From the NCBI GenBank assembly GCA_045599645.1, contig JAZRWI010000080.1, positions 15,735 to 79,734 of the forward strand: DNA of 64,000 bases, written 5' to 3'. The notes under the pieces were generated by a model. It did not search any database. It saw nothing but the letters and a program-made list of their open reading frames with translations, and was not told the origin of the DNA. The DNA comes from Candidatus Avigastranaerophilus sp. (GTDB lineage: Bacteria; Muiribacteriota; Ozemobacteria; Ozemobacterales; Ozemobacteraceae). The position numbers and the translations under genes were made by a program. Position 1 is the stretch's first letter; each line of letters begins with the position of its first letter. Below are positions 9,801 to 23,760 of the stretch, one piece after another.

Positions 9801-10943
9801 TTGAGGAGTGGAGAATTGGCTGAAGGAAAACCATTTATTAAATGTGGCCAGCTTTTCGACCATACAGACGCTTTTGAATATACCCCTGAAACAGAGCAGC
9901 TTTTCGTTGATGCTATGAACGAAGCTTTGCGCTGGCATGCAAACCACTGTCCAGATTACAAAGCTTTTCTAGCAGAAAATGGCCTTGCTGATTTAAAACA
10001 AAAATATTCACCAGAACAGATTCCACCTCTATTAGTAAGCATATTCAAGGAATTTAAACTGGCTTCTGTGCCTGATAAGCAGGTAAAAATAGAATTAACC
10101 TCCTCAGAAACAGGTGGACGCAAAAGTGCAATAATACTGGATGCACGCTCATATAAAAGGATACTGAAAATAGTAGAAAATATTTTTGGTTCCCTTGGTC
10201 TGGTGGACCACAAGCAGAAGGTTAATTATCTTTGCTTCACATATGACCCCAAATACGCTGTCAATGTAGGAACAGCTTTTTCCTACAAGCTTTTGACAGA
10301 TTTAACAGCTCATAGAAGTGTTTATTATGCTATTAGATTCGATAAAAAGACAGGCGAATTCAATTTCGACGCAGAAGCAGCAGCAAAAAAACTGATTGAT
10401 TTCAGCACCCACCCTGAACCAGTCAGAATACTTGGTTTTCCTGCTTATCTATGGCAGGTCTGTGACTGGTTGGAAAAGAACAACATGGATTTGAAGCTTG
10501 GCAAGAAATCCTTCATCATCACTGGTGGCGGTTGGAAAATCCATAAAGACCTTGAAGTTACCAAGGATATTTTCAAAGATCGTGTAAATAAGATTCTTGG
10601 TATCCCACATGAAAATGTCAGAGACCTGTTCGGCATGGTTGAGCACGGCATTCCTTATGTTGACTGTGAATGTGGAAGGTTGCATGTTCCGATTTATGCC
10701 AGAGCAATGTGCGTAGACCCGGAAACCTTGTTCCAGGTAGAAGATGGCGAAGAGGGTCTTCTCTATCTTATGACGCCCTATATTTCAAGCTATCCGTCAA
10801 TATCACTGCTAACTACAGATAAAGCAGTCATAGAAGATAACTGCCCATGTGGCAGACCTGGCAAAACCTTCAGAATTATCGGAAGAGCCGGAATGGCAAA
10901 GCATAAAGGCTGCGCAATCAATGCACTGGAGCTTCTAAAATGA
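9801..10943 (+). CDS. LuxE-like acyl-protein synthetase (ANL/PaaK-like adenylating enzyme)
   Basis: ~380 aa with a P-loop-like TSSETGGRKS, GGGWK, and the C-terminal CPCGRPGKTFRIIGRAG motif typical of PaaK/LuxE. The exact start is uncertain. Confidence 0.55.
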   Translation: MRSGELAEGKPFIKCGQLFDHTDAFEYTPETEQLFVDAMNEALRWHANHCPDYKAFLAENGLADLKQKYSPEQIPPLLVSIFKEFKLASVPDKQVKIELTSSETGGRKSAIILDARSYKRILKIVENIFGSLGLVDHKQKVNYLCFTYDPKYAVNVGTAFSYKLLTDLTAHRSVYYAIRFDKKTGEFNFDAEAAAKKLIDFSTHPEPVRILGFPAYLWQVCDWLEKNNMDLKLGKKSFIITGGGWKIHKDLEVTKDIFKDRVNKILGIPHENVRDLFGMVEHGIPYVDCECGRLHVPIYARAMCVDPETLFQVEDGEEGLLYLMTPYISSYPSISLLTTDKAVIEDNCPCGRPGKTFRIIGRAGMAKHKGCAINALELLK

Positions 10944-12793
10944 TCAATAACAAGATTTTTGTTTTCGGACAGGAATTAGCATCAGATTGGCTTTGTGCAG
11001 AAACAGCAAACGAGCTGCTTGACGAAGCCTATGAAAAGTCTAAGCTTGCAGCTGAACCGGACATAGAATGCATATTAGAAATTTTTGATAATGTATCAAA
11101 AGCCTGGTCTGACCCAGAGTATAAGCTACGTAAAAAAGCAGTAGAAATATTGCCACAGCTCACTTCATTCAGTGCAGAAATGATTGAGGAAGGTTTAAAT
11201 GTTGTCAGCTCAATATGTTCAAGAAAGAGTCTTGAAAAGCGTTTATACAGTGAAATAGGCAGTCTGGAAGCCTTAAATGAAGGCGAAGAACGACCACATA
11301 ACAATTATAGATTAAAAGCACAACCAAGAGGAGTAGTTCTTCATATTAGCACTGGTAATGTGTTTGTAGACACTGTTGATAGTCTGATTTCCGGAATCAT
11401 AACAAAGAATGCCAACATTCTTAAAATGTCAGGAACGAACCCTGTTTTCCCTGTTCTGTTCCTGGAAAGCATAAAAGAGTTTGACCCAGCAGGTATCATA
11501 TGGGCAAATCAGGCAATTGTAGCCTGGAATGGCGGTAATAGAGCCATAGAAGATGTTCTTTTTAACGGAAAGCTGACACTTGTGTTCTGGGGCGAACGCA
11601 AAGCCTTAGATTCATTAAAGCCACGTTTAGGCCGACAAGTTAAGCTTATAGAAAACGAACCAAGGTATTCCTTTGCTGTAATAGAAGGCAAATGTCTGAA
11701 ACCCAATGCTCCAGAAAATGTTGTCAGAGGTCTGGCCTTAGATGTTTGCCGATGGAATCAGCAAGCCTGCTCATCTCCTCATGTGGTTTATGTCATAGAC
11801 AAGGATTTAAAAACATCACACCAGCTGATAGAAGCTCTGTTCGATGAAATGATTCAAGTCAGCGAGGAACTGCCTCACGGTAATTTAAGCTTTGATGAAA
11901 AGGTAGAAATCCGTAAAGTCCGCGAAATAGCACGCATGATGCAGGTTCGCAGTGAAGGAAGACTTGTTTGCCCGGAAGAATTTGATTTCACACTTGTTCT
12001 GGAATATGACCCTGCTTTCAAGATTTCATGCCTGAACAGAACATTATTCATAAAGCGTGTAACAAATATTGAAGACTTAATAGAGCAGCTTTCACCTATA
12101 TCTGATTATCTTCAGACAGCTGGTTTATGTTGTTCAACAGATTTTACAAATATCTTTGAGCATGAATTATTCAATCTTGGCGTTAAAAGAATCACAGATA
12201 TTGGTGGAATGACCGAAAGCCATGAAGGAGCCCCGCGTGAAGGTTATTTCATTTTACGTGACCTGGTTGAATGGGTTGCCGTTGAATATAAGAACGATTA
12301 TCAATCAAGAATAGAACGACTTCTTAAGAACCTCTGTTCTTCACCATATTACTGCCAGTTAATTGAAGAAGCAGGCGGCTGTAGTTATAACAGCTTTCTC
12401 AAGCTTCCTTTCCTTGATAAAGACAGTTTTTACAGAATTTCTCCACCAGAAGCCAACAACATTCCGAGCAGGCCTATGGCAGATACCTGTATCGATACAG
12501 GACTCGTAGGCTGGCAATGCGCCCACATTCCTGGAACTATACATCATGTTCCAGAGGAGTATTGCTATGTCGAAATTATTTCTACAAAAGACCAATCAAT
12601 TATTGAAGATGATACTCCGGGGGAAATAGTTGTAACCAACTTAGACCATAAGCTTCAGCCAATTATCCGCTATAGAACCGGTGACCTAGGCCGTTGGGTA
12701 GAAATAGAAAAATGCCCTTGCGGTTTTACAGGTAAATCCTTTGAATTGCTTGGCCGCTGTGACGACCTGATTGTAGAAAGAACAATCAAATAA
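10940..12793 (+). CDS. LuxC-like acyl-CoA reductase (ALDH-like fold) fused to a short PaaK-like C-terminal module
   Basis: The N-terminal ~440 aa are ALDH/LuxC-like with candidate catalytic Cys in WNQQACSSPH. The C-terminal ~175 aa carry LPFLDKDSFYRI...IRYRTGDLG...CPCGFTGKSFELLGRCDDL but no P-loop. It overlaps the upstream gene by 4 nt. Confidence 0.5.
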   Translation: MINNKIFVFGQELASDWLCAETANELLDEAYEKSKLAAEPDIECILEIFDNVSKAWSDPEYKLRKKAVEILPQLTSFSAEMIEEGLNVVSSICSRKSLEKRLYSEIGSLEALNEGEERPHNNYRLKAQPRGVVLHISTGNVFVDTVDSLISGIITKNANILKMSGTNPVFPVLFLESIKEFDPAGIIWANQAIVAWNGGNRAIEDVLFNGKLTLVFWGERKALDSLKPRLGRQVKLIENEPRYSFAVIEGKCLKPNAPENVVRGLALDVCRWNQQACSSPHVVYVIDKDLKTSHQLIEALFDEMIQVSEELPHGNLSFDEKVEIRKVREIARMMQVRSEGRLVCPEEFDFTLVLEYDPAFKISCLNRTLFIKRVTNIEDLIEQLSPISDYLQTAGLCCSTDFTNIFEHELFNLGVKRITDIGGMTESHEGAPREGYFILRDLVEWVAVEYKNDYQSRIERLLKNLCSSPYYCQLIEEAGGCSYNSFLKLPFLDKDSFYRISPPEANNIPSRPMADTCIDTGLVGWQCAHIPGTIHHVPEEYCYVEIISTKDQSIIEDDTPGEIVVTNLDHKLQPIIRYRTGDLGRWVEIEKCPCGFTGKSFELLGRCDDLIVERTIK

Positions 12794-14090
12794 AAATAAA
12801 ATAAGTTATCATTTCGGCTACCAGCATTGTTGCCCACACGCCACTCAGACCCCATAACTTCGATAGCAGCAGCAAAACCGGTATAGTGATTATTCCACCT
12901 CGGCAAGCAGAAAGCCAGAAGGACTTTCCAGGCTTGTCGCACGAAGCCAGAATCTGAGTATTAACAATATTACCTCCCCAGAAAATCATAGCCGTGAAAA
13001 AGATTTTTATTCCTAAGTCTGCTATGCCTATCAATTCAATATTATTTTCAAAATTAAATATATTGATTATTGGAGTTCGGAATACAAAAAGAATAAAATA
13101 AAGTAATATACTGATTGCTTTTGTAAGAGTATATGCCCAACCGGATATTTTTTTAACAAGCATCTGGTCCCCTTCACCATAGGAATAACTGACAAGGGGC
13201 TGAATACCCTGAGAAACGCCTGTAAATATAGCTGTAACCACAATAGCAATATTAGCAATAATACCATAAGCAGCAACACCAATATTTCCTGAGCATTTCA
13301 GGACAACCAGATTAAAAAATATCATTACAAAACCAGTAGAAAACTCAGTAATAAAGGAAGGGAAGCCTAGCGTTAAGATATCAATTATCCTTGAGAAATC
13401 AATTTTTGGTATTTCAAACTCAAATCTACCAAGATAAAAGCAATAAATTATTATCTGGAAGCCCAATGCAATAGCAGGAGCAACGCCAGAAGCCAAGGCA
13501 GCTCCCCAGATTCCGTAATTCAAAATATAAATGAAAATATAATCAAGAACCAGATTGCTAAAGCTGTTTATCAAAGCAGCTGTCATAGCAAACTTAGGAT
13601 GACCGGCGGCTCTATAAATACAGATCCCAAACCCATTAAGAATAATCATTAAACTGAATAAAAAGATAGTGCTTATGTATGTGCTGGAATAAGGCAGCAG
13701 TTTATCATCAGCACCCATCAGTTTCATAAGCTCATTACTGTTTAAATATCCGATGAATCCTATAAAACATCCCAAAACCACTGAAGTAAATACCCCAAGA
13801 ATAATTGCCTGTACAGCAGAATCCTTTCGCTTCTCACCTAAAAGTATTGAATATCTGACTGATGTTCCCATGCCAAGCATAATGCCAGTAGCTGACACAA
13901 GAAAGAAGAATGGTAAAGCGATATTTAAGCCGGCAAGAGCATTGAGACCAATTTTGGTAGCTATAAAATATGTATCAAAAAGAACATAAGCGGAAACACC
14001 GAGCATGCTCAAAACGTTCAATGATACATATTTTATAAAATCATGAAAAATATCTGAAAATTCTTTTTGATTGCTCAATATAGCTACCAA
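12786..14090 (-). CDS. MATE-family efflux transporter
   Basis: 434 aa, ~12 TM helices, overall MATE-like composition and size. Its end overlaps the LuxC-like stop by 8 nt (convergent). Confidence 0.7.
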   Translation of the reverse strand: MVAILSNQKEFSDIFHDFIKYVSLNVLSMLGVSAYVLFDTYFIATKIGLNALAGLNIALPFFFLVSATGIMLGMGTSVRYSILLGEKRKDSAVQAIILGVFTSVVLGCFIGFIGYLNSNELMKLMGADDKLLPYSSTYISTIFLFSLMIILNGFGICIYRAAGHPKFAMTAALINSFSNLVLDYIFIYILNYGIWGAALASGVAPAIALGFQIIIYCFYLGRFEFEIPKIDFSRIIDILTLGFPSFITEFSTGFVMIFFNLVVLKCSGNIGVAAYGIIANIAIVVTAIFTGVSQGIQPLVSYSYGEGDQMLVKKISGWAYTLTKAISILLYFILFVFRTPIINIFNFENNIELIGIADLGIKIFFTAMIFWGGNIVNTQILASCDKPGKSFWLSACRGGIITIPVLLLLSKLWGLSGVWATMLVAEMITYFIFI

Positions 14091-14115
14091 TTTTGCCTGA
14101 AGCTAACAGTCAGGT

Positions 14116-15249
14116 TCATTTCTTTTTATAAGTTGCAAATATTGCAGATGCAGGAAGCTTCTGAATTAACCAGTCTTTTTCGCCTTTTTCTTCAGCAAGC
14201 TTGATAATAGAATCTATTATCTTGTCTGCTTCTTCGTTTTTAACGCACATAATAGCATTTTCGTAGGTTGATGTTTTATTATCTGCACGTGGCTCATCAG
14301 CCAAACTGATATATCTCATGTTTATAAGAGTAGCACCAGCTGCACCGCCATCCATAGCTGTCTGAATATAATCATCGCTATGGCCGACAGGACAAATAAA
14401 ACTAATTTCCCTATGAGAGAAGGTTGTAGTTGAATTCAGAATTCTTTCACTACTATTTTCAAATGTGCGCTTTCGCCAATCAGTATTTTGCTTAAGATCA
14501 TCGATAGCAGCCACAATCTGTTCCATGCTGGCTGTCTGTGTTTGATTTCCAACTCTAATAAGCGGATCTACCAAGCCACAATTTACATGGGTCTGATACA
14601 TAAATCCACCACCAGGTCTATTCAGCTTACCTTTTTCAATAAGCATATTCTGCAAGCCATTGGCATCAAATGAAGGAACCAGCAGATAAGTCAATTCTTT
14701 TTCTGGTGTAATAGTGATTCTAAGCAAACCTAATCTATCTCTGATACCTGTTCCTTTGCCAAGGCTGACTGTTGGCAAACCAGCCCCGTGCCTCAATGCA
14801 ACCTTAGAAATATTATCACCTGTTGCAGAAAAGGACTGAATACCGGTAATCATTGTTAAATCATGAATAACATTACCCTTACACAAGCCTTCATCCATTT
14901 TCAAATCAGGAACGTCACTGCCACCTATTTCGAAAATATCCTGAGCCAGAACACTGCCTCGCCCCGGAATCCTTAAATCAAGCTTGTTAATCAGGTATAA
15001 TGCAACTGCTTCAGCTTTATCAAAAGCAACAATAAACCTGATAATATCGGTCGGGGAATCTTCAATCGGGTCTTCAAAACCAAGAATAGTCCAAATTGTA
15101 GGTTTTTCGTGAATACGAACAGTTCTTGCACTTTCAGCAAATACCGATTGGCAGCCAATAGACTTTATAACTTCCAAAGCCTGTTTCTGAAGGGCATGAT
15201 GAATCATCAGGGTAATACGTGATTTCTTACCATATTCTGTTTTATTCAT
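14116..15249 (-). CDS. Protein with two P-II (GlnB)-like domains flanking a central ~170-aa domain
   Basis: Residues ~10-100 and ~280-377 show P-II-like beta-alpha-beta-beta-alpha-beta patterning (e.g. ISFICPVGHSDDYIQTAMDGGAAGATLINMRY...ENAIMCVKNEEADKIIDSIIKLA). 4-nt overlap with the upstream membrane gene and a 25-nt gap to MATE. Confidence 0.4.
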   Translation of the reverse strand: MNKTEYGKKSRITLMIHHALQKQALEVIKSIGCQSVFAESARTVRIHEKPTIWTILGFEDPIEDSPTDIIRFIVAFDKAEAVALYLINKLDLRIPGRGSVLAQDIFEIGGSDVPDLKMDEGLCKGNVIHDLTMITGIQSFSATGDNISKVALRHGAGLPTVSLGKGTGIRDRLGLLRITITPEKELTYLLVPSFDANGLQNMLIEKGKLNRPGGGFMYQTHVNCGLVDPLIRVGNQTQTASMEQIVAAIDDLKQNTDWRKRTFENSSERILNSTTTFSHREISFICPVGHSDDYIQTAMDGGAAGATLINMRYISLADEPRADNKTSTYENAIMCVKNEEADKIIDSIIKLAEEKGEKDWLIQKLPASAIFATYKKK

Positions 15250-17396
15250 TTCTTAACCTCCCCATTATCACCCAGATGCCTATTCTGGCGTTTTCTGATT
15301 CTAATACCAAAAGCAAGCATTGTTATAATCGGGAACAAAGATGCCATTGAAACAATACCAAAGCCGTCAACAACATTGAGACCACCGCCAATACCAAGAC
15401 CCATGGCAAGAACGAGAGGAACAGTGATAGGACCGGTTGTAACTCCGCCTGAATCCCATGCAAGTCCAGTAAATTCCTCATCACAGAAATGTGTTAGAAC
15501 AAGCAAGGCTATATATCCAGGTATCAGTAACCAACAGGCAGGAATGTCATAAATAAGCTTTAACACTCCTACCAGAAGTCCTATTCCAACACCTATAGAA
15601 ACAGTTCCTACGACCTTTTTGCGTTTAACAGTACCAACAGTCATTTCTTCAACGGTAATACCCAAAGCATTAAGAGCAGGTTCTGCAACCGTTGAACCAT
15701 AGCCCATGCCGAAAGCAAAAAGACAAATCAGGAATATGCCTAATCTTGAAACCTTAGTTTTTGTAAAAAATCTAGCAACCTTTGTTGTCCATAAAACATC
15801 TTTCTGCTGAATGTATTCATAGGTTCCAGTTTCTTCGTTATACTTTGTTTTATCGAAAGCCACTGTTTTCAGATTATTTGACTTATCAGAGAAATAAAAA
15901 TACTTAGTCAGCTTACCTTGGCCATTGTAAGCAGATATCATAGAATTCTTATCAAAATTCTTAATAAGAACGCGTCCTTCTTCCTGGGTTTCACTCTTAT
16001 ACATGGTTGGAAGATTTTTACCAATCTGATTTCCTAAGGAAGACAGGCCTAACTGAATACCTGTTGTAAGTATTGCCATACCAAACAACGCTAATACTAT
16101 GCCAAGAATTACCTCATCAGCCTTTTTCAGTTTATCCCTAAGCAGGAATACAAGAACAAGCAGCAGTAATAAAACCAGAGGAACGACAGCAAATATAGCA
16201 TTATAAGCTTCTTCCTTGAATATTTTCTTTATATCATACTTATTGTTATCATATTCCCTATCATATTCTGCTGTTACTTTATTGATTTGTTCATCAGTTT
16301 CATACTCTTCTGCAATTTTTTGAGAAATCAACTGCTTTTCTTCTTCATTGGCTTTTGTGCGCAACCAATCAGTAAGAGAAACTGTTCCTAATAGTTTTGG
16401 ATTGTTTTCTTTTTCATTTATCAGTGACAAAACAGCTGCATGATATTTTTCCTGGTCATTATAGTAAGAAATTCTGCCTGCAGATGTGCCTCTCTGAAAA
16501 GCCAATGACTGCATAGCTTCTTCTGTCTTCATAGTTTCCAAGGCTTTTGCCCTATATGCCTGAGAGAAGAATTCTATTTCTGACATTGGCTTTGGTGTCG
16601 TTGTATTCAGATACATACCCATTACAAACACACCTAAAACAGGGAATAGAGATGCAAGTGTAACAACACCAAGTCCTGAAGCAGCAGCGCTGTTATTTTT
16701 ACCACTAGCCTTGCTAATACCAATACCCATGGCTAATACAAGAGGAACCGTAACCGGACCTGTTGTAACACCACCTGTATCCCAAGCAAGATTAATGATA
16801 TATTTCAGGTTTTCATCAAATGCAAAAACACCGGACATTACCAGCAATATAGGAACTAGAAAATATAGAAAAGGCTTGAGGGCCATTCCGAAATAAAAAC
16901 GAGCCATACCGGCAGCAACAGCTAAGCCAACGCCGCCACCGACAGCCCAAACAAGAAGGTTATTGTCTACTTCCAAAAATCTGTATAACAGCGGTGTAGC
17001 CCAAGGAGTCACACCTTCGCCTGCCATTCTCAAGGTAGATATGGACGGTTCTGCAAGGGTAGCACCAAAACCCAGCAAAAGCCCAAATATCATTATTACC
17101 CAGAAATTTGTTTTTTGTGGCAATTGAACACCGACTCTGTCGCCAAGTGGCATCAAACCAAGGAAAAGTCCTTCAAGGAAAGAAGCAAGACCCAAAACAA
17201 CGAGACCAACACCTATCGCCATCTGAATAGCAGATTCTGGGGCTGATTGTAATACTATAATCTTGAAAGCAATCAAGTATATAATAATAAAAGCGACAGC
17301 CTTTATCTGCTCTTTCAGCTTTATTTTTATATAATTAAGTACCATTGGTATTGATACTTTCAGAGGGAACTTCAAGTTTCTCGTTTTTGGCGCCAT
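15246..17396 (-). CDS. Membrane protein with internally duplicated DUF1538-like halves and a ~270-aa soluble/coiled-coil insert
   Basis: The two halves share DTGGVTTGPVTVPLVLAMGIGIS / DSGGVTTGPITVPLVLAMGLGIG and ASLFPV/ASLFPI motifs. The central region (~res 265-540) is charged and K/E-rich. Confidence 0.45.
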   Translation of the reverse strand: MAPKTRNLKFPLKVSIPMVLNYIKIKLKEQIKAVAFIIIYLIAFKIIVLQSAPESAIQMAIGVGLVVLGLASFLEGLFLGLMPLGDRVGVQLPQKTNFWVIMIFGLLLGFGATLAEPSISTLRMAGEGVTPWATPLLYRFLEVDNNLLVWAVGGGVGLAVAAGMARFYFGMALKPFLYFLVPILLVMSGVFAFDENLKYIINLAWDTGGVTTGPVTVPLVLAMGIGISKASGKNNSAAASGLGVVTLASLFPVLGVFVMGMYLNTTTPKPMSEIEFFSQAYRAKALETMKTEEAMQSLAFQRGTSAGRISYYNDQEKYHAAVLSLINEKENNPKLLGTVSLTDWLRTKANEEEKQLISQKIAEEYETDEQINKVTAEYDREYDNNKYDIKKIFKEEAYNAIFAVVPLVLLLLLVLVFLLRDKLKKADEVILGIVLALFGMAILTTGIQLGLSSLGNQIGKNLPTMYKSETQEEGRVLIKNFDKNSMISAYNGQGKLTKYFYFSDKSNNLKTVAFDKTKYNEETGTYEYIQQKDVLWTTKVARFFTKTKVSRLGIFLICLFAFGMGYGSTVAEPALNALGITVEEMTVGTVKRKKVVGTVSIGVGIGLLVGVLKLIYDIPACWLLIPGYIALLVLTHFCDEEFTGLAWDSGGVTTGPITVPLVLAMGLGIGGGLNVVDGFGIVSMASLFPIITMLAFGIRIRKRQNRHLGDNGEVKK

Positions 17397-17418
17397 TGCT
17401 AATTCCTTGTTTTATTTC

Positions 17419-18336
17419 TTAGTGCTTATTTGCAGATTTTAAGAACTTATAGAGATCAGATTCAGTGGAAATAACCAGCTTAAAGTTGTTTTTAACTGTT
17501 TTTTCCAATGCTTCCAATGATCTATAGAATTCATAAAATTCGGGGTCTTTGTTATATGCTTCTGCGTAGATGCGGGCTGCATCAGCATCAGCCTTACCCT
17601 TAATTTCTGCAGATTTTTTGAAGGCTTCTGAAGTGATTTTCTTCAGTTCCTTTTCCATTTCACCGAGAATTTCTGCCATAGTACCTTCACCTTCAGAACG
17701 ATACTGGGCAGCAACCTTATTACGTTCAGAAATCATGCGTTCGTAAACCTTTTCACGAACCTTATCAATGTAATTTATTCTCTTAATCTGGATATCAATA
17801 ATTTCAATACCATAGTCAGGAACGCTTACCTTAGCCTTTTCAAGCATTTCGGCAATGATTTCCTTGCGGCTTTTTCTTGGGCCGTCAAGCGTTTCGGTAT
17901 CTTCATCAGAAGAAGTATCCGGTTTGTAATTTTCGCCTCTGACTAAGTCAACAAGGTAATTTGAAGAAACAGAATCGCGGACTACAGAGTCGATAATATC
18001 GTCAAGTCTGCTGTGTGCACCTGAAACATTAGCAACAGTCCTGAAGAATTTCAGTGGATCCTTGATTTTCCATCTGGCAGTTGCATCAACCCATATATAT
18101 TTCTTTTCCTTAGTGGTAATCTGGTTCGGATCACCATCCCACTTAAGAATACGACTTTCAAAATAAAAAGCATCTTCAATAAAAGGAACCTTGAAATGCA
18201 AGCCAGGCATGCATATATCACCAACCGGCTTACCAAAACGGGTTACAATTGCCTGCTGTCCTTCATTGACAACAAAGAAGCTTCCACCAATAACACAAAG
18301 TAATAAAATGGCTATAACAGAAACAAAGTATTTCAT
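17419..18336 (-). CDS. hflC: SPFH/band-7 protein HflC
   Basis: N-terminal TM helix plus SPFH domain. The start overlaps the hflK stop by 4 nt, and the order hflK-hflC is conserved. Confidence 0.8.
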   Translation of the reverse strand: MKYFVSVIAILLLCVIGGSFFVVNEGQQAIVTRFGKPVGDICMPGLHFKVPFIEDAFYFESRILKWDGDPNQITTKEKKYIWVDATARWKIKDPLKFFRTVANVSGAHSRLDDIIDSVVRDSVSSNYLVDLVRGENYKPDTSSDEDTETLDGPRKSRKEIIAEMLEKAKVSVPDYGIEIIDIQIKRINYIDKVREKVYERMISERNKVAAQYRSEGEGTMAEILGEMEKELKKITSEAFKKSAEIKGKADADAARIYAEAYNKDPEFYEFYRSLEALEKTVKNNFKLVISTESDLYKFLKSANKH

Positions 18337-19334
18337 TTCTTATCACCTCCATTAGCAGCGCTGAACGCATTCAATGGCAGAAGGCTGGTTACGCCGTTAG
18401 CTTCATCAACTACAGTAACTTCCTTGATATATGGGAATACCTTTTCGATGGTTTCCAGATACAATCTGGTTCTGGTTACATTCTGATACTTTTTGTATTC
18501 TTCGTAGACAGAAAGGAATCTCTTTGCTTCGCCTTCTGCTTTATTAACACGTTCCAAAGCATAACCTTCAGCCTCCTGAATAGTCTTTTTGGCTTCACCC
18601 TTTGCCTTTGGTACCTGATTATTATATTGTTCTCTGGCTTTCTGAATAAGACTTTCCTTTTGCTGTTCTGCTTCATTTACTGCATTAAAAGCAGTCTTTA
18701 CACTTGCAGGTGGATTAACATCCTGGAATTTTACAGTTACAATATGAACACCTATATCATAGCTATCAAGGATGCTTTGAATTTCTTTGTGGATCATATC
18801 TGCAAGAACAGCACGTTCAGTGGTAAGAACATCACTGACGTTAGCATTGCCGATTATTTTTCTTGTAGATGCTTCAGCAACGTCTCTTATAGTAGAAACC
18901 GGGTCTTTAATATTGAACAAATATTTATAAGCATCGCAAACCTGGTATTGAACAATCCATTCAAGGTCACTGACATTTAAATCACCAGTGAGAACCAGAG
19001 ATTCATCGTCGAACTTTTGACTCGAATATGTTGTTCTACCACTTGAATTGGCAGTTCTGAAACCGAATTCTTCCTTTAAAATACGTTCAGTTTTTACAAG
19101 AAAAACTTCATCTATACCAAAAGGCAACTTCATATGAAGACCTGAGGTTTCCAGAGAATTGAATTTCCCAAGGCGCAGAACTACTGCGCTTTCTTCTGTA
19201 TCAACAGTATAAAAACATGCTGAAATTGTGATTAATACAAATACTACAACCACAAGCCAAGCATATTTAGCCCATAAGGACATGACGCCAACGATTTTTG
19301 CGTCTTCTGGCTTTTTGTTATTTTTCATAACCAA
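18333..19334 (-). CDS. hflK: SPFH/band-7 protein HflK
   Basis: N-terminal TM helix, SPFH domain and a C-terminal coiled coil. First gene of the minus-strand operon. Confidence 0.8.
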   Translation of the reverse strand: MVMKNNKKPEDAKIVGVMSLWAKYAWLVVVVFVLITISACFYTVDTEESAVVLRLGKFNSLETSGLHMKLPFGIDEVFLVKTERILKEEFGFRTANSSGRTTYSSQKFDDESLVLTGDLNVSDLEWIVQYQVCDAYKYLFNIKDPVSTIRDVAEASTRKIIGNANVSDVLTTERAVLADMIHKEIQSILDSYDIGVHIVTVKFQDVNPPASVKTAFNAVNEAEQQKESLIQKAREQYNNQVPKAKGEAKKTIQEAEGYALERVNKAEGEAKRFLSVYEEYKKYQNVTRTRLYLETIEKVFPYIKEVTVVDEANGVTSLLPLNAFSAANGGDKK

Positions 19335-19380
19335 CTCCGCTTTCAGATATAATTACAACATTTTAACAAAACCCTACTCT

Positions 19381-19407
19381 TTTGTCACATTATTTTAAGG
19401 TGACAAA
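19381..19407. promoter_or_regulatory. Perfect 8-bp inverted repeat TTTGTCAC-N11-GTGACAAA in the hflK / xerC divergent intergenic region
   Basis: Read directly from the sequence. Candidate operator for a dimeric regulator. Confidence 0.35.
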
Positions 19408-19505
19408 ATCCATAAAAACTATTTTTTTGGGGGGCTTGTACGGGGTCGGACATTGTGGTATTTTTATAAGAACGTACACCATTATTTGAAAAGAGGGAAT
19501 CAATT

Positions 19506-20411
19506 TTGTTTATAAAAGAGCTTATAGAGCAGTATTTAAGTTCTTTAGGGAAAGAACGGAACCTGTCACCTCAAACTATCAGAGGCTATCAGAATGACCT
19601 CAATTTTTTCGAACAGTGGTTGACCGCCAACAATATTAACGAAATAAGCAAAGCGGAAGCTCTCACACCAACCCAAATACGTGGTTTCTGGGCTGGTCGC
19701 AGAAAAGGCGGCTTATGTGCTGCCAGCATGCGAAGAGGACAATCTGCTTTACGCGGCCTATTCAAGTATGCCATGCGTCACGGTCTGGCAAATAAGAATC
19801 CAGTCGACATGATGGATTCTCCGAAGGTACAGCGTCCATTACCCAAAGCTCTCAGTCAGGAAGACGTGAATATGCTTCTAAATTCACCAGACTCCACTAC
19901 CCTTTTGGGAATGCGAGACAAAGCCATCTTAGAATTGCTTTACGGAAGCGGACTCCGTGTTTCAGAAGTTTCCAATTTAACCTCTGAAAACATCAACCTT
20001 GAAGCTCAGACTGTAATAGTAAGAGAAGGCAAAGGCGGCAAAGACAGAGTCGTTCCACTGACTCCTCTTTCCTGCCAGGCTATTTCTCTTTATATAAACA
20101 ATAGATTTTCCACAAAGCCGGAATGGCGCGAAGAAAAGCACATATTCCTGAACCACCTTGGCACACCTCTGACAACCAGAAGCATCGCCAGATTAATAGA
20201 TAAGTATGCGAGACAGCTGGCAATGATGATGAATATAACACCTCATCAGTTCAGACACAGCTTCGCCACTCACCTATTAAACAATGGCGCCGATATCAGA
20301 GCAGTCCAGGAAATGCTTGGACACGCAAGTCTCTCAACCACACAGATTTATACCCGTATAAGCAAGGAAAAGCTTCTACAGACCTATAGATCCTGTCACC
20401 CGAGAGCTTAA
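19506..20411 (+). CDS. Tyrosine site-specific recombinase XerC/XerD family
   Basis: C-terminal catalytic region RHSFATHLLNNGADIRAVQEMLGHASLSTTQIYTRI with R..H..R..Y residues. Located immediately upstream of flgB as in Firmicute codV-...-flgB synteny. Confidence 0.85.
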   Translation: MFIKELIEQYLSSLGKERNLSPQTIRGYQNDLNFFEQWLTANNINEISKAEALTPTQIRGFWAGRRKGGLCAASMRRGQSALRGLFKYAMRHGLANKNPVDMMDSPKVQRPLPKALSQEDVNMLLNSPDSTTLLGMRDKAILELLYGSGLRVSEVSNLTSENINLEAQTVIVREGKGGKDRVVPLTPLSCQAISLYINNRFSTKPEWREEKHIFLNHLGTPLTTRSIARLIDKYARQLAMMMNITPHQFRHSFATHLLNNGADIRAVQEMLGHASLSTTQIYTRISKEKLLQTYRSCHPRA

Positions 20412-20465
20412 GAAGACCTTTTTGAGATTATTTTCCAGAGATAACTACAAAAACAAAATATTTAC

Positions 20466-20493
20466 TAAATGTTTGTTAGATAGTTGTCGATAT
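20466..20493 (+). promoter_or_regulatory. Candidate sigma-28 (FliA/SigD)-type promoter for the flgB operon: TAAA-N16-GTCGATAT
   Basis: Compared by eye with the TAAA-N15-GCCGATAT consensus. It lies ~35 nt upstream of the flgB RBS (GGGAG). Confidence 0.35.
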
Positions 20494-20526
20494 TTATAGA
20501 AGAATAGAAAACAGGGAGTAAAGATT

Positions 20527-20949
20527 ATGTTTGAAAGACTGACTGGGACTGCGACTTTTAACCTTCTCGGCAAGGGTCTTGATGTTGCTGCAAAACGCAA
20601 CGCCGTTATATCCAACAATATCGCTAACGTAAACACTCCCTTATTCAAGCGACAGATTGTTACATTTGAAGATGAAATGGCAAAGGTTTTCGATGGCCAC
20701 GTAGACATTACCGGCCGCAGAGAAGACGACCGCCATATTCCCATAGGCGAAATCGATTACATGAACATTGGTCCTACAACAATCAAAGATCGTATCCATA
20801 TTATGAGAAACGACAAGAACAATGTAGATATCGATGTAGAAATGTCAGATTTGGCCAAGAACACAATGACCTATCAGATTCACGCTAATAGATTGGCTCA
20901 GATGTTTTCACAGCTAAACGATGTTATAAGTAGAGGTGCTAAGTCCTGA
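20527..20949 (+). CDS. flgB: Flagellar basal-body rod protein FlgB
   Basis: N-terminal SNNIANVNTPLFKRQ rod-protein motif, in flagellar operon context. Confidence 0.85.
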   Translation: MFERLTGTATFNLLGKGLDVAAKRNAVISNNIANVNTPLFKRQIVTFEDEMAKVFDGHVDITGRREDDRHIPIGEIDYMNIGPTTIKDRIHIMRNDKNNVDIDVEMSDLAKNTMTYQIHANRLAQMFSQLNDVISRGAKS

Positions 20950-21389
20950 TGAGTATGTTCAGAAGTATTGATATTTCAGCTAGTGGTCTTACAGCAGAAC
21001 GTCTACGCATGGATGTTATTTCAAACAACATCGCTAACGTAAACACTACCAGAACAGCAGACGGTGGTCCTTTCAGAAGAAAGATGGCCATTTTTGAAGC
21101 CCGTCATCATTACGGCCAGCGCGCATACCAGGATAGAATCAATCCTCAGGAACCAGGCCGCGGCGTTAGAGTTAATGCCATTATGGATGATATGACTCCA
21201 TTCAAGCTCGAATACGATCCAAGTCATCCAGATGCTGACCCAGATGGCTATGTAAGAAGACCAAACATTGATATCGTTCACGAAATGGTTGATATGATTA
21301 CAGCCACTCGTGCATACGAAGCCAATGTTACCTGCATCAGTTCTTCTAAGGACATAACCAATGCAGCTCTCAACATCAGTTCCAAGTAA
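20949..21389 (+). CDS. flgC: Flagellar basal-body rod protein FlgC
   Basis: SNNIANVNTTRT motif and C-terminal rod domain TATRAYEAN. Confidence 0.85.
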   Translation: MSMFRSIDISASGLTAERLRMDVISNNIANVNTTRTADGGPFRRKMAIFEARHHYGQRAYQDRINPQEPGRGVRVNAIMDDMTPFKLEYDPSHPDADPDGYVRRPNIDIVHEMVDMITATRAYEANVTCISSSKDITNAALNISSK

Positions 21390-21436
21390 TTAGCAGATAT
21401 TATAGATTATAGATAAAATAAGTTAGGGTAAACAAA

Positions 21437-21739
21437 ATGAGAATTAACGAAAACCATCCGTTGCATGGCGTTTTGAGTGATAAGCCCAGACGACCTTCCA
21501 CCAACGCAAAAGAGCAATGGGGCTCTTTTCTTGATACTTTACAAACCGCTATTGGTGAAGTAGACACTTTGGGCAAAGAATCAGAAAAACTCACACAAGA
21601 CGCAGTATTGGGCAGAGTTGAAAACTTGCATGACGTTATGATTGCTGCCGAAAAGGCTAAGACCGCCATGAACCTCACTATTGAAGTTCGCGGAAAGGTT
21701 TTGGAAGCCTATAAGGAAGTAATGCGCATGAATTTTTAA
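21437..21739 (+). CDS. fliE: Flagellar hook-basal body protein FliE
   Basis: 100 aa with a C-terminal ...VRGKVLEAYKEVMRMNF FliE signature. Confidence 0.8.
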   Translation: MRINENHPLHGVLSDKPRRPSTNAKEQWGSFLDTLQTAIGEVDTLGKESEKLTQDAVLGRVENLHDVMIAAEKAKTAMNLTIEVRGKVLEAYKEVMRMNF

Positions 21740-21861
21740 TTAGGCTCTTTACATATTTAGCTAGGTGTACTATAAATAAATAGATAATATAACAAACAGC
21801 TCCTGTAAAAAAATTATACATAGAACAAATCCACAGGAGTAAATTAGGGAGTGCAAGCAAA

Positions 21862-23760
21862 ATGAACGATTACCTCAGGCAACTGTGGGAACCGATTTCA
21901 AAGCTGACCAAAAAACAGCTCATTATTTTAGGGAGCGTTGTTGGTCTCGTTGTCATCGGCATTATCACAGCCACGATGTGGGGCACAGAAAAAGAGTATG
22001 TTCCTCTTTTCAAGGAACAATTGAAACTGGAAGACGCCAGTAAAATAGACGCTAAGCTTACCGAATTAGGCTTAGACCACAAAATTGGTTCAACCGCCAA
22101 TGAAATACTTGTTCCACTTACAGATAAAAGTAATGTATTGCTCAAGCTTGCCGAAGAAAAACTACTTCCTGAAGCCGATGCCGGTTGGAAGGAACTTGTT
22201 GATAACCGCTCCCTATTTCAAGGCACTACCCAGCAGGAATTCGACCTCAATTTTGTAAGAGGTCTCCAGGTTGAATTAGAAAAAACCTTAAAGAGAATGG
22301 ACCCTATCGAAGATGCAAGGGTCACCATTGTTAAGCCTAAAAAGCAGGTATTTGCAGAAGACCAGAAGGAATCCTCTGCAAGCGTAGTTATTAAGCTTAA
22401 ACCAGGCATGGTTGTAGACCAGAACCAGATCAGAGCTATCAGAGATTTAATCTGCTCTGCAGTTGAAGGACTTGAACCAGGCAATGTTAAGATTTCAGAC
22501 ACAACAGCCAGAGACTTAACCAGAATCATCGAAGATGAAGAATTAATGAGCCTGGATAAAGCCAAAACCATCCAGATGAGACTTACCAGAGACAATGAAA
22601 AGCATCTCAAGGGCAAGCTCCAGAGCATGCTTGAACAGATTCTCGGTGATGGTAAGGCTATTGTAAGCGTAAGTCTTGAAATGGACTTTGACCAGAAGGA
22701 AGCAGTCAGTGACGTAGTAGTTCCTCCAGAAGGTCTGGACCACGGTATTACAATTTCTGAAAAAACAGAAAGCGAACAATACGAAGGCCGCGATTTGATT
22801 GAAGACGGCGAACCAGGCGTAAACTCCAACCTTCCTCCAGGATCACCGGCATACCCTGGAACAGAAAATGGTGTATTAAACAAATACAAGCGTGACGGTG
22901 TAATTAAGAACTATGAAGTCACCAAATCAAAGGAAAAATTCGTTAAAGAGCAGGGCACAATCAAGCGTATGACTGCCTCGGTCATTATTGATGGCGACCC
23001 TGCAGAATATAAATCTATTGAAGACCAGATTCTTGCTATTGCTCAGACCGCCATTGGTTATAACAAACTACGTGGCGATAAAATGACCCTCTTAGTATAT
23101 AAATTCAGAAATGAAGATCTTGAACGCGCAAGACTTGAAATGGAAAATGAGAAGGAGCGGGAAAAACAAATGTTTATGATTATTATGGGACTGCTTTGTG
23201 GCTTCCCAATACTTCTCGGTATCATCTTTATGGTAGCCAGAATATCCAGAATGCGAGCTATGGTTCAAGAACAGAAGCGTCTTGAAGCCGCTGCAGCTGA
23301 AGCTGAAAGAATCCGTAAAGAAAGAGAAAAAGCTCTCCTTGAACAGAATGAACGCCAGTGGAAGGAATATGAACGTCGTTTCAGCGATACTAGAAACTGG
23401 TTCCCGGAAATCAAGGACGAAATGGAAAAGAAACGCAAGGTTCAGGACCTCAAGTTGGAAGCATGCAAATATGCTGCTGAACATGATGGTCTTCCAGCCG
23501 ATTTCGAAGAAATGTGCCCGGAAGAAAAATATGCTTATCGTGAAGCATTCCAGAAGAAGGCAGATGGTAAACTCGAAGACGAAATCAAGAGACTTGAAGA
23601 CATTATTGCTAAGCGCAATGCTGACAGACAGGATGAACTCAATAGTCTTGAAGCAGCTGCTAATGCTCGTGATGCTCTTGAAAAGCGTATCAGAGACCTT
23701 ATTACCGAACAGCCTGAAAATGCAATTCAGGTTATCAAGACCATGATTAACAGCAAATAA
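21862..23760 (+). CDS. fliF: Flagellar M-ring protein FliF (with extended K/E-rich coiled-coil C-terminus)
   Basis: N-terminal TM helix, periplasmic ring domains, a second TM at ~res 440-460, then ~170 aa of charged coiled coil. Confidence 0.85.
   Translation: MNDYLRQLWEPISKLTKKQLIILGSVVGLVVIGIITATMWGTEKEYVPLFKEQLKLEDASKIDAKLTELGLDHKIGSTANEILVPLTDKSNVLLKLAEEKLLPEADAGWKELVDNRSLFQGTTQQEFDLNFVRGLQVELEKTLKRMDPIEDARVTIVKPKKQVFAEDQKESSASVVIKLKPGMVVDQNQIRAIRDLICSAVEGLEPGNVKISDTTARDLTRIIEDEELMSLDKAKTIQMRLTRDNEKHLKGKLQSMLEQILGDGKAIVSVSLEMDFDQKEAVSDVVVPPEGLDHGITISEKTESEQYEGRDLIEDGEPGVNSNLPPGSPAYPGTENGVLNKYKRDGVIKNYEVTKSKEKFVKEQGTIKRMTASVIIDGDPAEYKSIEDQILAIAQTAIGYNKLRGDKMTLLVYKFRNEDLERARLEMENEKEREKQMFMIIMGLLCGFPILLGIIFMVARISRMRAMVQEQKRLEAAAAEAERIRKEREKALLEQNERQWKEYERRFSDTRNWFPEIKDEMEKKRKVQDLKLEACKYAAEHDGLPADFEEMCPEEKYAYREAFQKKADGKLEDEIKRLEDIIAKRNADRQDELNSLEAAANARDALEKRIRDLITEQPENAIQVIKTMINSK

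Follow-up and report, generated by a model that had tools for sequence, protein, structure and literature searches.

A conserved gene pair links a fused DUF1538 membrane protein to a single-chain protein with three P-II-like domains

P-II proteins are symmetric homotrimers that act on symmetric targets, and P-II-like proteins control transporters of many substrates. SbtB and GlnK each form a homotrimer from subunits of ~110 aa and bind the trimeric transporters SbtA and AmtB at a 3:3 ratio. The gene pair that we describe here is widespread and unstudied, and it departs from the usual build of P-II sensors, in which three separate chains come together: here one chain carries three P-II-like domains, no two of them identical, and is encoded beside a pseudo-twofold, single-chain transporter of the DUF1538 family, to which SbtA and AmtB are unrelated. 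The sole characterised member of that family is UmpAB of Halomonas zhaodongensis, a two-component Na+(Li+,K+)/H+ antiporter whose activity and need for both subunits were reported from complementation and everted-vesicle assays in E. coli KNabc (PMC5484666).

The pair lies in a 64,000-nt stretch of a Candidatus Avigastranaerophilus genome (the window), within a cluster of five minus-strand ORFs at 12786-19334. All five ORFs of the original prediction were recovered, and their intergenic spacings (-4, 22, -4 and 25 nt) are exactly as it gave them.

19360-19388, minus strand: promoter-like site upstream of hflK (GTGACA-17-TAAAAT, TG-extended, 10/12 matches), from a consensus scan only, in a region where the number of promoter-like sites is not above that in shuffled sequences
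18333-19334, minus strand: hflK (TIGR01933, 9e-81, 271.1 bits, above the cut-off of 159.4)
17419-18336, minus strand: hflC (TIGR01932, 2e-82, 276.8 bits, above the cut-off of 134.4)
15246-17396, minus strand: fused two-repeat DUF1538 membrane protein, 716 aa (PF07556), the core transporter gene
14116-15249, minus strand: triple P-II-like protein, 377 aa, presumed to act in the cytoplasm as the transporter's sensor or regulator
12786-14090, minus strand: MATE-family transporter gene (PF01554, 121.9 bits; TIGR00797, 144.9 bits against a cut-off of 147.4)

At both -4 junctions the genes overlap by ATGA, with a GGAGG Shine-Dalgarno sequence 5' of the overlap, and a scan of the minus strand between the five genes for terminator-like sites found none. 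The start of hflK is likely to be the ATG at 19328 in preference to the TTG at 19334. In this genome, hflKC and the MATE gene are probably co-transcribed with the gene pair.

The tight spacing, the absence of an internal terminator-like site and the single promoter-like site upstream of hflK would all fit a system made of all five genes, for example an SPFH scaffold organising a P-II-regulated channel and an exporter, and the adjacency of hflKC to the pair is kept at ~62-70% amino-acid identity, in loci L002 and L003. The wider comparison of loci argues against such a system. At 80 of 80 related genome loci, a 716-aa-type DUF1538 gene is followed directly, on the same strand, by a 377-aa-type gene, and the gap between the two, as extrapolated, has a median of ~4 nt. 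The loci come from Melainabacteria, Riflebacteria, PVC phyla, Spirochaetes, Bacteroidales and others. HflK/HflC adjoin the pair at only three of these loci (L001-L003) and MATE at only one (L001); loci L004-L006, at a similar ~60% identity, have no HflK/HflC beside it, and clustering of the flanking ORFs of related loci yielded no third conserved gene family. HflKC is, moreover, a general modulator of FtsH, as its TIGR equivalogs denote. We consider a single five-gene system very improbable and largely refuted by this comparative context, and the functional unit of five genes that had been proposed is given up here. The conserved functional unit is a two-gene cassette of the 716-aa and 377-aa genes; hflK/hflC and the MATE gene are lineage-specific neighbours outside the conserved module.

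Metagenome loci agree with this picture. Among 120 such loci, the downstream gene encodes a triple P-II protein in 70 and was classed as a stand-alone P-II-like gene in 18 (one of which, L090, is a contig-cut fragment), giving a downstream P-II-type gene in 88 loci that have downstream sequence; most of the others stop at a contig edge. At 50% identity the triple P-II family falls into at least 234 clusters, and it occurs in at least 246 GTDB species. It is carried mostly by uncultured anaerobes of gut, rumen and sediment, and many of these carriers bear MAG isolate names (CSSed, T3Sed, B1Sed) that we take to denote soda-lake sediment samples.

The 716-aa protein belongs to the Pfam DUF1538 family, as had been suggested from its motifs: PF07556 matches it in two stretches at 346.9 bits (cut-off 22.6; 4e-104). 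It is not a UmpAB equivalog, since it scores 189 bits with NCBIfam UmpA (NF041627, cut-off 490) and 153 bits with UmpB (NF041628, cut-off 500). The predicted duplication is borne out by the two copies of the DUF1538 motif, DTGGVTTGPVTVPLVLAMGIGI at aa 206-227 and DSGGVTTGPITVPLVLAMGLGI at aa 648-669, and by the homology of the two halves (33% identity over 174 aa, E 6e-22). Two paralogous DUF1538 units, a trait of the family, are thus present in one chain. When unfused DUF1538 pairs are aligned with it, their A-like gene corresponds to half 1 and their B-like gene to half 2. An AF2 model of the protein (pLDDT 84.8, pTM 0.84) has the following parts.

16605-17363, minus strand: DUF1538 half 1, aa 12-264, with seven TM helices (AF2), N-terminus in and C-terminus out by K+R bias
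16203-16604, minus strand: all-alpha linker domain between the halves, aa 265-398 (~135 aa), AF2 helices 273-384
15249-16202, minus strand: DUF1538 half 2, aa 399-716, with seven TM helices, N-terminus out and C-terminus in
15747-16001, minus strand: beta-rich insert in half 2 between TM2' and TM3', aa 466-550 (~85 aa), AF2 strands 471-532

In the model, helices are broken at TLAEP (aa 113-117) and DTGGVTTGP (aa 206-214) in half 1 and at STVAEP (aa 568-573) and DSGGVTTGP (aa 648-656) in half 2, and the acidic residues at these breaks, E116 and D206 in the first half and E572 and D648 in the second, are invariant. Over 50 homologues, the K+R content of the half 1 loops alternates (4.6/0.3/2.5/0.9/1.0/0.3/1.3), and half 2 has the opposite bias in 45 of the 50. 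With the N-terminus of half 2 outside and its C-terminus inside, the reverse of half 1, the positive-inside rule, which is the only basis for the assignment, indicates that the two seven-TM halves are antiparallel in the membrane. The same K+R bias places the linker domain and the beta-rich insert probably on the extracytoplasmic side. Where the original prediction had a single charged or coiled-coil insert of ~270 aa in the cytoplasm, the model has two separate domains, and the bias puts both on the other side of the membrane. Within the linker domain, F276, F277, A299, R308, W344 and E353 are conserved, and residues 361-395 are variable and, in this lineage, acidic. Shorter fused proteins (type B) lack both the linker domain (hmm positions 263-371 are missing) and the beta-rich insert (453-527).

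In common with UmpAB, the 716-aa protein has PF07556, two paralogous units of ~7 TM helices in the order A-like then B-like, and the acidic and glycine-rich motifs. The two differ in that UmpAB is made of two chains and our protein of one, with the two extra domains, and in that the 716-aa gene has a P-II-like gene coupled to it; no P-II partner is mentioned in the UmpAB paper (PMC5484666). The module had been called uncharacterised; this holds for the gene pair but not wholly for DUF1538, because UmpAB has been reported as a Na+(Li+,K+)/H+ antiporter. With the UmpA and UmpB equivalog cut-offs so far from reached, substrate transfer from UmpAB is weak. A search for solved structures resembling the predicted membrane fold found none, and with no solved transporter to match it, the fold gives no indication of the substrate.

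It is possible, though in our view unlikely, that the same architecture and P-II-type control serve a substrate other than monovalent cations, such as bicarbonate or another anion, a nitrogen or carbon metabolite, or a divalent metal. The triple P-II protein would then report the matching metabolic state, in the way that SbtB signals inorganic carbon status and GlnK nitrogen status. The wide miss of the equivalog thresholds is in keeping with such a substrate, as are the diversity of the transporters on which P-II-like proteins act and the carbon-related roles of the sensor's best structural neighbours, SbtB and CPII. A monovalent cation is nevertheless suggested by the sole experimental datum in the DUF1538 family, which is cation/proton antiport, by the invariant acidic residues at the helix breaks, which suit cation binding, and by the presumed soda-lake origin of many carrier MAGs. 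We also looked at the loci for a riboswitch or a conserved neighbour indicating another substrate and found none.

The second protein was originally predicted to have P-II-like domains at both ends around a central domain that could not be identified. The P-II-like ends were upheld by the AF2 model, which has three beta-alpha-beta-beta-alpha-beta domains, but the centre is the most clearly P-II-related and the most conserved of the three.

14923-15231, minus strand: P-II-like domain D1, aa 7-109, which matches solved P-II chains by family profile
14572-14868, minus strand: P-II-like domain D2, aa 128-226, the best conserved of the three
14458-14526, minus strand: helical linker D2-D3, aa 242-264, AF2 helices 242-253 and 257-264, consensus AASxEQIIAAIDDLKxGTxWRKR
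14140-14415, minus strand: P-II-like domain D3, aa 279-370, the most divergent, predicted (AF2) as beta-alpha-beta-beta-alpha-beta

The family is stable in length (365-400 aa). The 377-aa protein in the window has no Pfam match to PF00543 at E<=0.1, and 10 of 61 family members match that model weakly (best E 1.2e-5). For D1, the family profile over aa 7-113 has weak similarity to solved P-II chains (6yc6, E 0.0035; 1hwu; 3mhy). R45, G96, G98 and Q103 are invariant in this domain, and the family consensus keeps the R-Q at the T-loop base together with G96/G98. D2 aligns with D1 by hhalign at 93% probability (E 3e-7). It carries a T-loop-like segment, GTGIRDRLGLLRITITPEKE, at aa 166-185 and a B-loop-like segment, NRPGGGFMY, at aa 210-218, and the frequency of the top residue reaches 0.95 over aa 171-180 and 0.93 over aa 211-220. 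Residues 172-179 have a pLDDT below 50 in the AF2 model, like flexible T-loops. GxGxG and PGGG are kept in D2. The ATP/ADP and 2-OG ligand residues of canonical P-II are R38, Q39, K58, G87, G89, K90, R101 and R103; alignment with P-II-like sequences gave no evident equivalents of K90, R101 and R103. The D2-D3 linker is conserved at 0.76-0.86, with invariant E243, Q244, D250, W258 and R259. D3 has no significant similarity to D1 or D2 by hhalign; it retains the GxxGxT turn (G302, G305, T307) and is in register with P-II-like sequences when aligned.

A further link to known P-II proteins comes from stand-alone relatives of D2. Proteins of ~117 aa encoded beside shorter DUF1538 genes match D2 with E~1e-20 (hmm positions 124-225), and their scores of 29.7-39.5 bits exceed the Pfam P-II gathering cut-off of 25. 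These profile comparisons have shown D2 to be homologous to Pfam P-II proteins. The relatives, named 'P-II family nitrogen regulator' (type B loci, L201, L204), have a D2-like T-loop and a PGxG B-loop and are encoded directly downstream of the DUF1538 genes. Such proteins are single-domain (105-140 aa), presumably trimeric and encoded by one or two genes per locus, and they go with unfused pairs or with shorter fused DUF1538 proteins (511-600 aa) that lack the two extra domains. Loci L202 and L203 have related stand-alone P-II-like genes without DUF1538.

The 377-aa protein resembles canonical P-II (PF00543) in its predicted fold, its GxxGxT turn and its glycine-rich B-loop. It differs in falling under the Pfam threshold, in not being a homotrimer of ~112-aa subunits and in having no Tyr51/Ser49 modification-site context. 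The T-loop lies between beta2 and beta3 of a ferredoxin-like P-II fold; that of D2 is shorter than the canonical loop, including those of SbtB and GlnK, and has another signature (GTG[IV]R[DE]RLG[IL]L). SbtB and CPII, both carbon-related, are the nearest structural neighbours, and the conserved adjacency and ATGA overlap with the transporter gene are as expected of regulators of the GlnK/AmtB and SbtB/SbtA type. The 377-aa protein might instead be a constitutive cytoplasmic subunit that the transporter needs for assembly or activity, such as a structural cap, a CutA-like metal or cofactor binder, or an enzyme. We find this improbable, given that D2 belongs by sequence to Pfam P-II and not to CutA, that conservation is strongest at the equivalents of the T-loop and B-loop used by signalling P-II proteins, that the T-loop is predicted to be flexible, and that UmpAB works in E. 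coli without a P-II partner.

The reading we prefer, with a probability of roughly 55%, is that the cassette encodes a UmpAB-type ion transporter and, at a 1:1 ratio, a single-chain, pseudo-trimeric P-II-like sensor that gates it; we infer the substrate, the ligand and the physical contact. Several observations count against this reading: the distance from the UmpA and UmpB cut-offs, the lack of significant similarity of D3 to D1 or D2, the missing PF00543 match of the 377-aa protein, its short T-loop, the absence of evident K90, R101 and R103 equivalents, and the stand-alone P-II-like genes at L202 and L203 that have no DUF1538. Gene 1 is a covalent fusion of the paralogous DUF1538 subunits, A-like then B-like, that are heterodimer partners in UmpAB. 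Its antiparallel halves would form a 14-TM inverted-repeat secondary transporter with the two added domains facing outward, and its activity would be cation/proton antiport. Gene 2, translationally coupled through the ATGA overlap, would provide a cytoplasmic protein of three tandem P-II-type domains, in which D1, D2 and D3 may pack as a single-chain pseudo-trimer. D2 retains the signature, in T-loop and B-loop, of the stand-alone P-II proteins found with shorter DUF1538 transporters. In a cleft between domains the sensor may bind a small ligand, for which an adenine nucleotide is the likeliest candidate, and the arginine-rich D2 T-loop would dock on the transporter's cytoplasmic side and so gate it at a 1:1 ratio, in a manner resembling GlnK on AmtB and SbtB on SbtA.

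More tentatively, we propose that the 377-aa protein is the first described single-chain P-II protein, a covalent pseudo-heterotrimer with specialised domains, of which D2 would hold the working T-loop, with D1 and D3 as its scaffold or as partners in the ligand cleft. The protein may have evolved from one or two stand-alone P-II subunits to fit, at a 1:1 ratio, an intrinsically asymmetric transporter, which would itself be a fused antiparallel heterodimer with a 7+7 inverted-repeat fold that has no PDB counterpart.

In summary, a stable and widespread family carries three different P-II-like domains per chain, always beside one asymmetric transporter. If the domains pack as proposed, the cassette would represent P-II signalling without threefold symmetry and offer a simple 1:1 system for studies of T-loop gating. 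For DUF1538, which has a single functional report and no member of solved structure, the predicted fusion of antiparallel halves, together with the unfused pairs and the shorter fusions, forms a natural series for the evolution of inverted-repeat transporters. If the more tentative proposal is true, the pair would show two fusions together, from a dual-gene antiparallel transporter to an inverted repeat and from a trimeric sensor to a single chain, with unfused and intermediate forms persisting in other genomes. Moreover, as many of the sediment MAG names look like those of soda lakes, the module may matter for ion and pH homeostasis in these environments.

The five minus-strand open reading frames of the original prediction are present at exactly the coordinates that it gave, and the spacings that it reported, -4, 22, -4 and 25 nt, are the values that we measured.

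18333-19334, minus strand: HflK, 333 aa, passing the NCBIfam equivalog cut-off (271 bits)
17419-18336, minus strand: HflC, 305 aa, passing the NCBIfam equivalog cut-off (277 bits)
15246-17396, minus strand: DUF1538 membrane protein, 716 aa, matching PF07556 in two stretches (346.9 bits)
14116-15249, minus strand: triple-P-II protein, 377 aa, with three P-II-like domains in an AlphaFold2 model
12786-14090, minus strand: MATE transporter, 434 aa, matching PF01554, with TIGR00797 at 144.9 bits against a cut-off of 147.4

At each of the -4 junctions the stop and start codons overlap as ATGA, with a GGAGG ahead of them, and no terminator-like site was found on the minus strand between the five genes. 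The tight spacing, the overlaps and the absence of internal terminator-like sites make it plausible that the five genes are co-transcribed. A promoter-like, TG-extended site with a 10/12 match lies at 19388-19360, from a consensus scan that was overall not enriched against shuffles. The ATG at 19328 is more likely to be the hflK start than the TTG at 19334, because a GGAG stands six bases upstream of it.

Convergent with the MATE gene, and overlapping its 3' end by 8 nt (12786-12793), are plus-strand genes at 9801-12793 for a LuxE-like acyl-protein synthetase (380 aa, PF04443) and a LuxC-like acyl-CoA reductase (617 aa), which overlap each other by 4 nt; the reductase matches PF05893 over aa 38-445, followed by an unassigned C-terminal extension of ~170 aa. 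Divergent from hflK, at 19506-23760 on the plus strand, lie a XerC/D-type tyrosine recombinase gene (301 aa) and then flgB-like, flgC-like and fliF genes, a row that resembles the codV-...-flgB-flgC-fliE-fliF arrangement of Bacillus subtilis and fits a flagellated Gastranaerophilales genome. Across the whole 64-kb window (1-64000), GC content is 36-42%, the cumulative GC skew is steadily negative, and no tRNA or tmRNA genes were found.

The original prediction treated all five genes as one functional unit, a reading that comparative data largely refute and that we now regard as highly improbable. When one genome of each GTDB species was scanned, relatives of the 377-aa protein turned up in 246 species; the 80 loci retained belong to Melainabacteria, Riflebacteria, Kiritimatiellia, Lentisphaerae, Verrucomicrobia, Spirochaetes, Bacteroidales, Delongbacteria, Fermentibacteria and others. 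A fused DUF1538 gene of ~690 aa lies directly upstream of the triple-P-II gene, on the same strand, at all 80 loci, with an extrapolated median gap of ~4 nt. HflK/HflC genes adjoin the pair at three of these loci only, and a MATE gene at just one of the three; clustering of the flanking ORFs for a conserved third gene returned just two core families. This rarity argues that the functional module is the DUF1538/triple-P-II pair, and that the five-gene row is its lineage-specific operon context. The nearest of the 80 loci (85-90% amino-acid identity) belongs to a Candidatus Avigastranaerophilus MAG of the Gastranaerophilales. The next commonest neighbours (ABC ATPase, peptidase, HDOD protein, P5C reductase, SDR) are unrelated housekeeping genes common to close relatives, and we therefore dropped a third gene as a clue to the pair's function. 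A tblastn search of plasmids with one DUF1538 half gave zero matches.

Profile searches bore out the predicted DUF1538 domain of the 716-aa protein but gave no Pfam P-II match for the 377-aa protein, which matched nothing in Pfam or NCBIfam. Its family comprises 234 clusters at 50% identity (E<=1e-30, among 1.84 billion representatives) of stable length, nearly all 365-400 aa, annotated at source as hypothetical and occasionally as P-II. Structure prediction, by contrast with Pfam, did recover the anticipated fold, and three times over: the AlphaFold2 model built from 61 homologues (pLDDT 83.4, pTM 0.84) contains three beta-alpha-beta-beta-alpha-beta domains in tandem.

aa 7-109: first P-II-like domain, D1
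aa 128-226: second P-II-like domain, D2
aa 242-264: conserved two-helix linker from D2 to D3
aa 279-370: third P-II-like domain, D3

The family profile matches solved P-II chains over aa 7-113, in D1 (E 0.0035-0.01), and 10 of the 61 family members match PF00543 weakly, in a search that did not report the matched region. By hhalign, D2 and D1 are relatives (93% probability, E 3e-7), and PGRGS of D1 stands opposite PGGGF of D2 at the B-loop position. The expectation of P-II-like ends around an unassigned centre is therefore reversed, the central D2 being the best-conserved part of the protein (0.95 in its T-loop-like aa 171-180, 0.93 in its B-loop-like aa 211-220). Model confidence falls below pLDDT 50 at aa 172-179, fitting a flexible T-loop. 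D3 has no significant hhalign similarity to D1 or D2, and is thus P-II-like by its predicted fold and a GxxGxT turn only.

The two halves of the 716-aa protein are homologous, as predicted (33% identity over 174 aa, E 6e-22), and carry the motifs originally quoted. The only characterised DUF1538 system is UmpAB of Halomonas zhaodongensis, a Na+(Li+,K+)/H+ antiporter of two paralogous ~7-TM subunits, both required (PMC5484666); the NCBIfam UmpA and UmpB models score the 716-aa protein below threshold (189 against 490 and 153 against 500 bits). An AlphaFold2 model from 50 homologues (pLDDT 84.8, pTM 0.84) places seven helices in each half, with broken helices at the invariant TLAEP (E116), STVAEP (E572), DTGGVTTGP (D206) and DSGGVTTGP (D648), and two further elements.

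aa 273-384: helices of an all-alpha linker domain
aa 471-532: five-strand insert

Lysine and arginine counts per loop over these 50 homologues alternate along half 1 so as to put its N-terminus in and its C-terminus out. The homologous loops of half 2 are biased the opposite way (2.5 against 0.3 at TM1'-2', 0.0 against 1.0 at TM4'-5', 0.1 against 1.3 at TM6'-7'), with 3.2 in the C-terminal tail, and this opposition holds in 45 of the 50 sequences. Together with seven helices per half and a linker that adds no transmembrane helix, the positive-inside rule implies that the halves are antiparallel, forming an inverted repeat, and that the alpha linker domain and the beta insert both lie outside the cytoplasm. 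The cytoplasmic face would then be made up of the N-terminal helix (aa 12-30), loops 81-97 and 421-428, and the C-terminal tail. In unfused genes the A-like subunit aligns with half 1 and the B-like with half 2; the same topology, carried over to UmpA/UmpB-type pairs, would make them heterodimers of antiparallel subunits. At the end of the linker domain is an acidic Tyr/Asp/Glu/Lys-rich stretch (aa 361-395, window 16212-16316, EEYETDEQINKVTAEYDREYDNNKYDIKK), missing or unconserved in most homologues (column conservation 0.05-0.2), which is probably the source of the charged or coiled-coil insert originally described.

A metagenome scan with the motif WD[ST]GGVTTGP yielded 120 loci, 70 of which share the window's architecture, in which a triple-P-II gene comes after a long fused DUF1538 gene. 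Another 18 were classed with stand-alone P-II-like genes, although in one of these loci (L090) the gene is a fragment cut by the contig end, next to a complete 688-aa DUF1538 gene. At the other 17, the fused DUF1538 gene is shorter (555-637 aa where complete; called as two ORFs in L092), encodes neither the alpha linker domain nor the beta insert, and precedes one or two stand-alone genes of ~115-160 aa. Unfused DUF1538 pairs with no detected P-II gene account for five loci, and the remainder are mostly cut by a contig edge. Of the stand-alone genes at these loci, the first corresponds to D2 (hmm positions 124-225, E~1e-20) and exceeds the Pfam P-II gathering score (29.7-39.5 bits against 25); the second usually matches D1 weakly. 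D2 and the stand-alone proteins align at a common GTG[IV]R[DE]RLG[IL]L signature and a PGxG loop.

Ten loci (L082, L092, L098, L108, L123, L167, L168, L171, L189, L199) encode two different stand-alone P-II-like proteins after a fused DUF1538 gene of 581-595 aa where complete. Pfam P-II recognises the first, which is D2-like; the second usually is D1-like and falls short, with D2-like matches for both in L108 and L168. This arrangement suggests that heterotrimeric P-II partners preceded the single-chain form. The gene order, D2-like and then D1-like, runs opposite to that of the domains in the 377-aa fusion. Among stand-alone P-II look-ups, L204 has an unfused 221-aa and 335-aa DUF1538 pair and then a P-II gene, and L201 a 511-aa fused gene and then P-II, so that the proximity of DUF1538 and P-II genes stated in the original prediction is borne out by example; L202 and L203 carry related P-II genes without DUF1538. 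The window, with both partners fused, is the most derived form.

Some of these loci have features of their own. An MscS-type mechanosensitive channel gene follows in L204 (4421-5359), and a CBS-domain gene adjoins the fused DUF1538 and P-II genes in L201 (4846-5160), neighbours that may point to an osmotic or ionic setting and to nucleotide sensing. The unfused pairs of L120, L132 and L186, next to which HMMs picked up no P-II gene, have unusually long subunits (350 aa, and 392-427 aa with cysteine-/proline-rich N-terminal extensions). The pairing has two exceptions in the fused genes of L131 (1373-3466) and L173 (22-1428), where no P-II-like gene is detectable although the sequence runs on for 3.6 kb or more downstream.

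The pair most likely works as an ion-coupled secondary transporter with a P-II-like sensor in the cytoplasm controlling it. By the only evidence available the transporter would be a cation/proton antiporter, and cation binding at the invariant acidic residues of the broken helices would fit; the same P-II-type regulation of a transporter for some other substrate is quite possible, if less probable. The pTM of 0.84 indicates confidently predicted relative domain positions, from which we infer that the three sensor domains pack as a single-chain pseudo-trimer. The conserved, arginine-rich T-loop of D2 (R170, R177) is the putative contact that would dock on the transporter, in parallel with GlnK-AmtB and SbtB-SbtA, and the D2 B-loop with a neighbouring domain would form a candidate ligand cleft. 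A 1:1 complex would fit the translational coupling and the fact that both partners are fused, one to one. We consider it improbable, more so than another substrate, that the 377-aa protein is instead a constitutive subunit without a sensing role. A riboswitch or leader RNA that might betray the substrate or the ligand was considered and dropped: no Rfam family reached gathering score in the whole window, nothing credible appeared at E<=1 in 12500-19700, and 19 related loci gave tRNA and tmRNA only.

Regulation of an adjacent transporter by a P-II-like protein is already known. In the full-text literature we found no paper that joins DUF1538 with P-II, nor one on tandem, single-chain or pseudo-trimeric P-II, and no Pfam or NCBIfam model spans the triple-P-II protein. 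What is new is the putative single-chain three-domain sensor, the fused, predicted antiparallel DUF1538 transporter, and the strict pairing of both. Many carrier MAGs bear isolate names that we take to be those of soda-lake sediment samples. DUF1538 is also among the Pfam features that predict growth pH (PMC13255231). Together, these two observations lend weak support to a role for the pair in ion and pH homeostasis.
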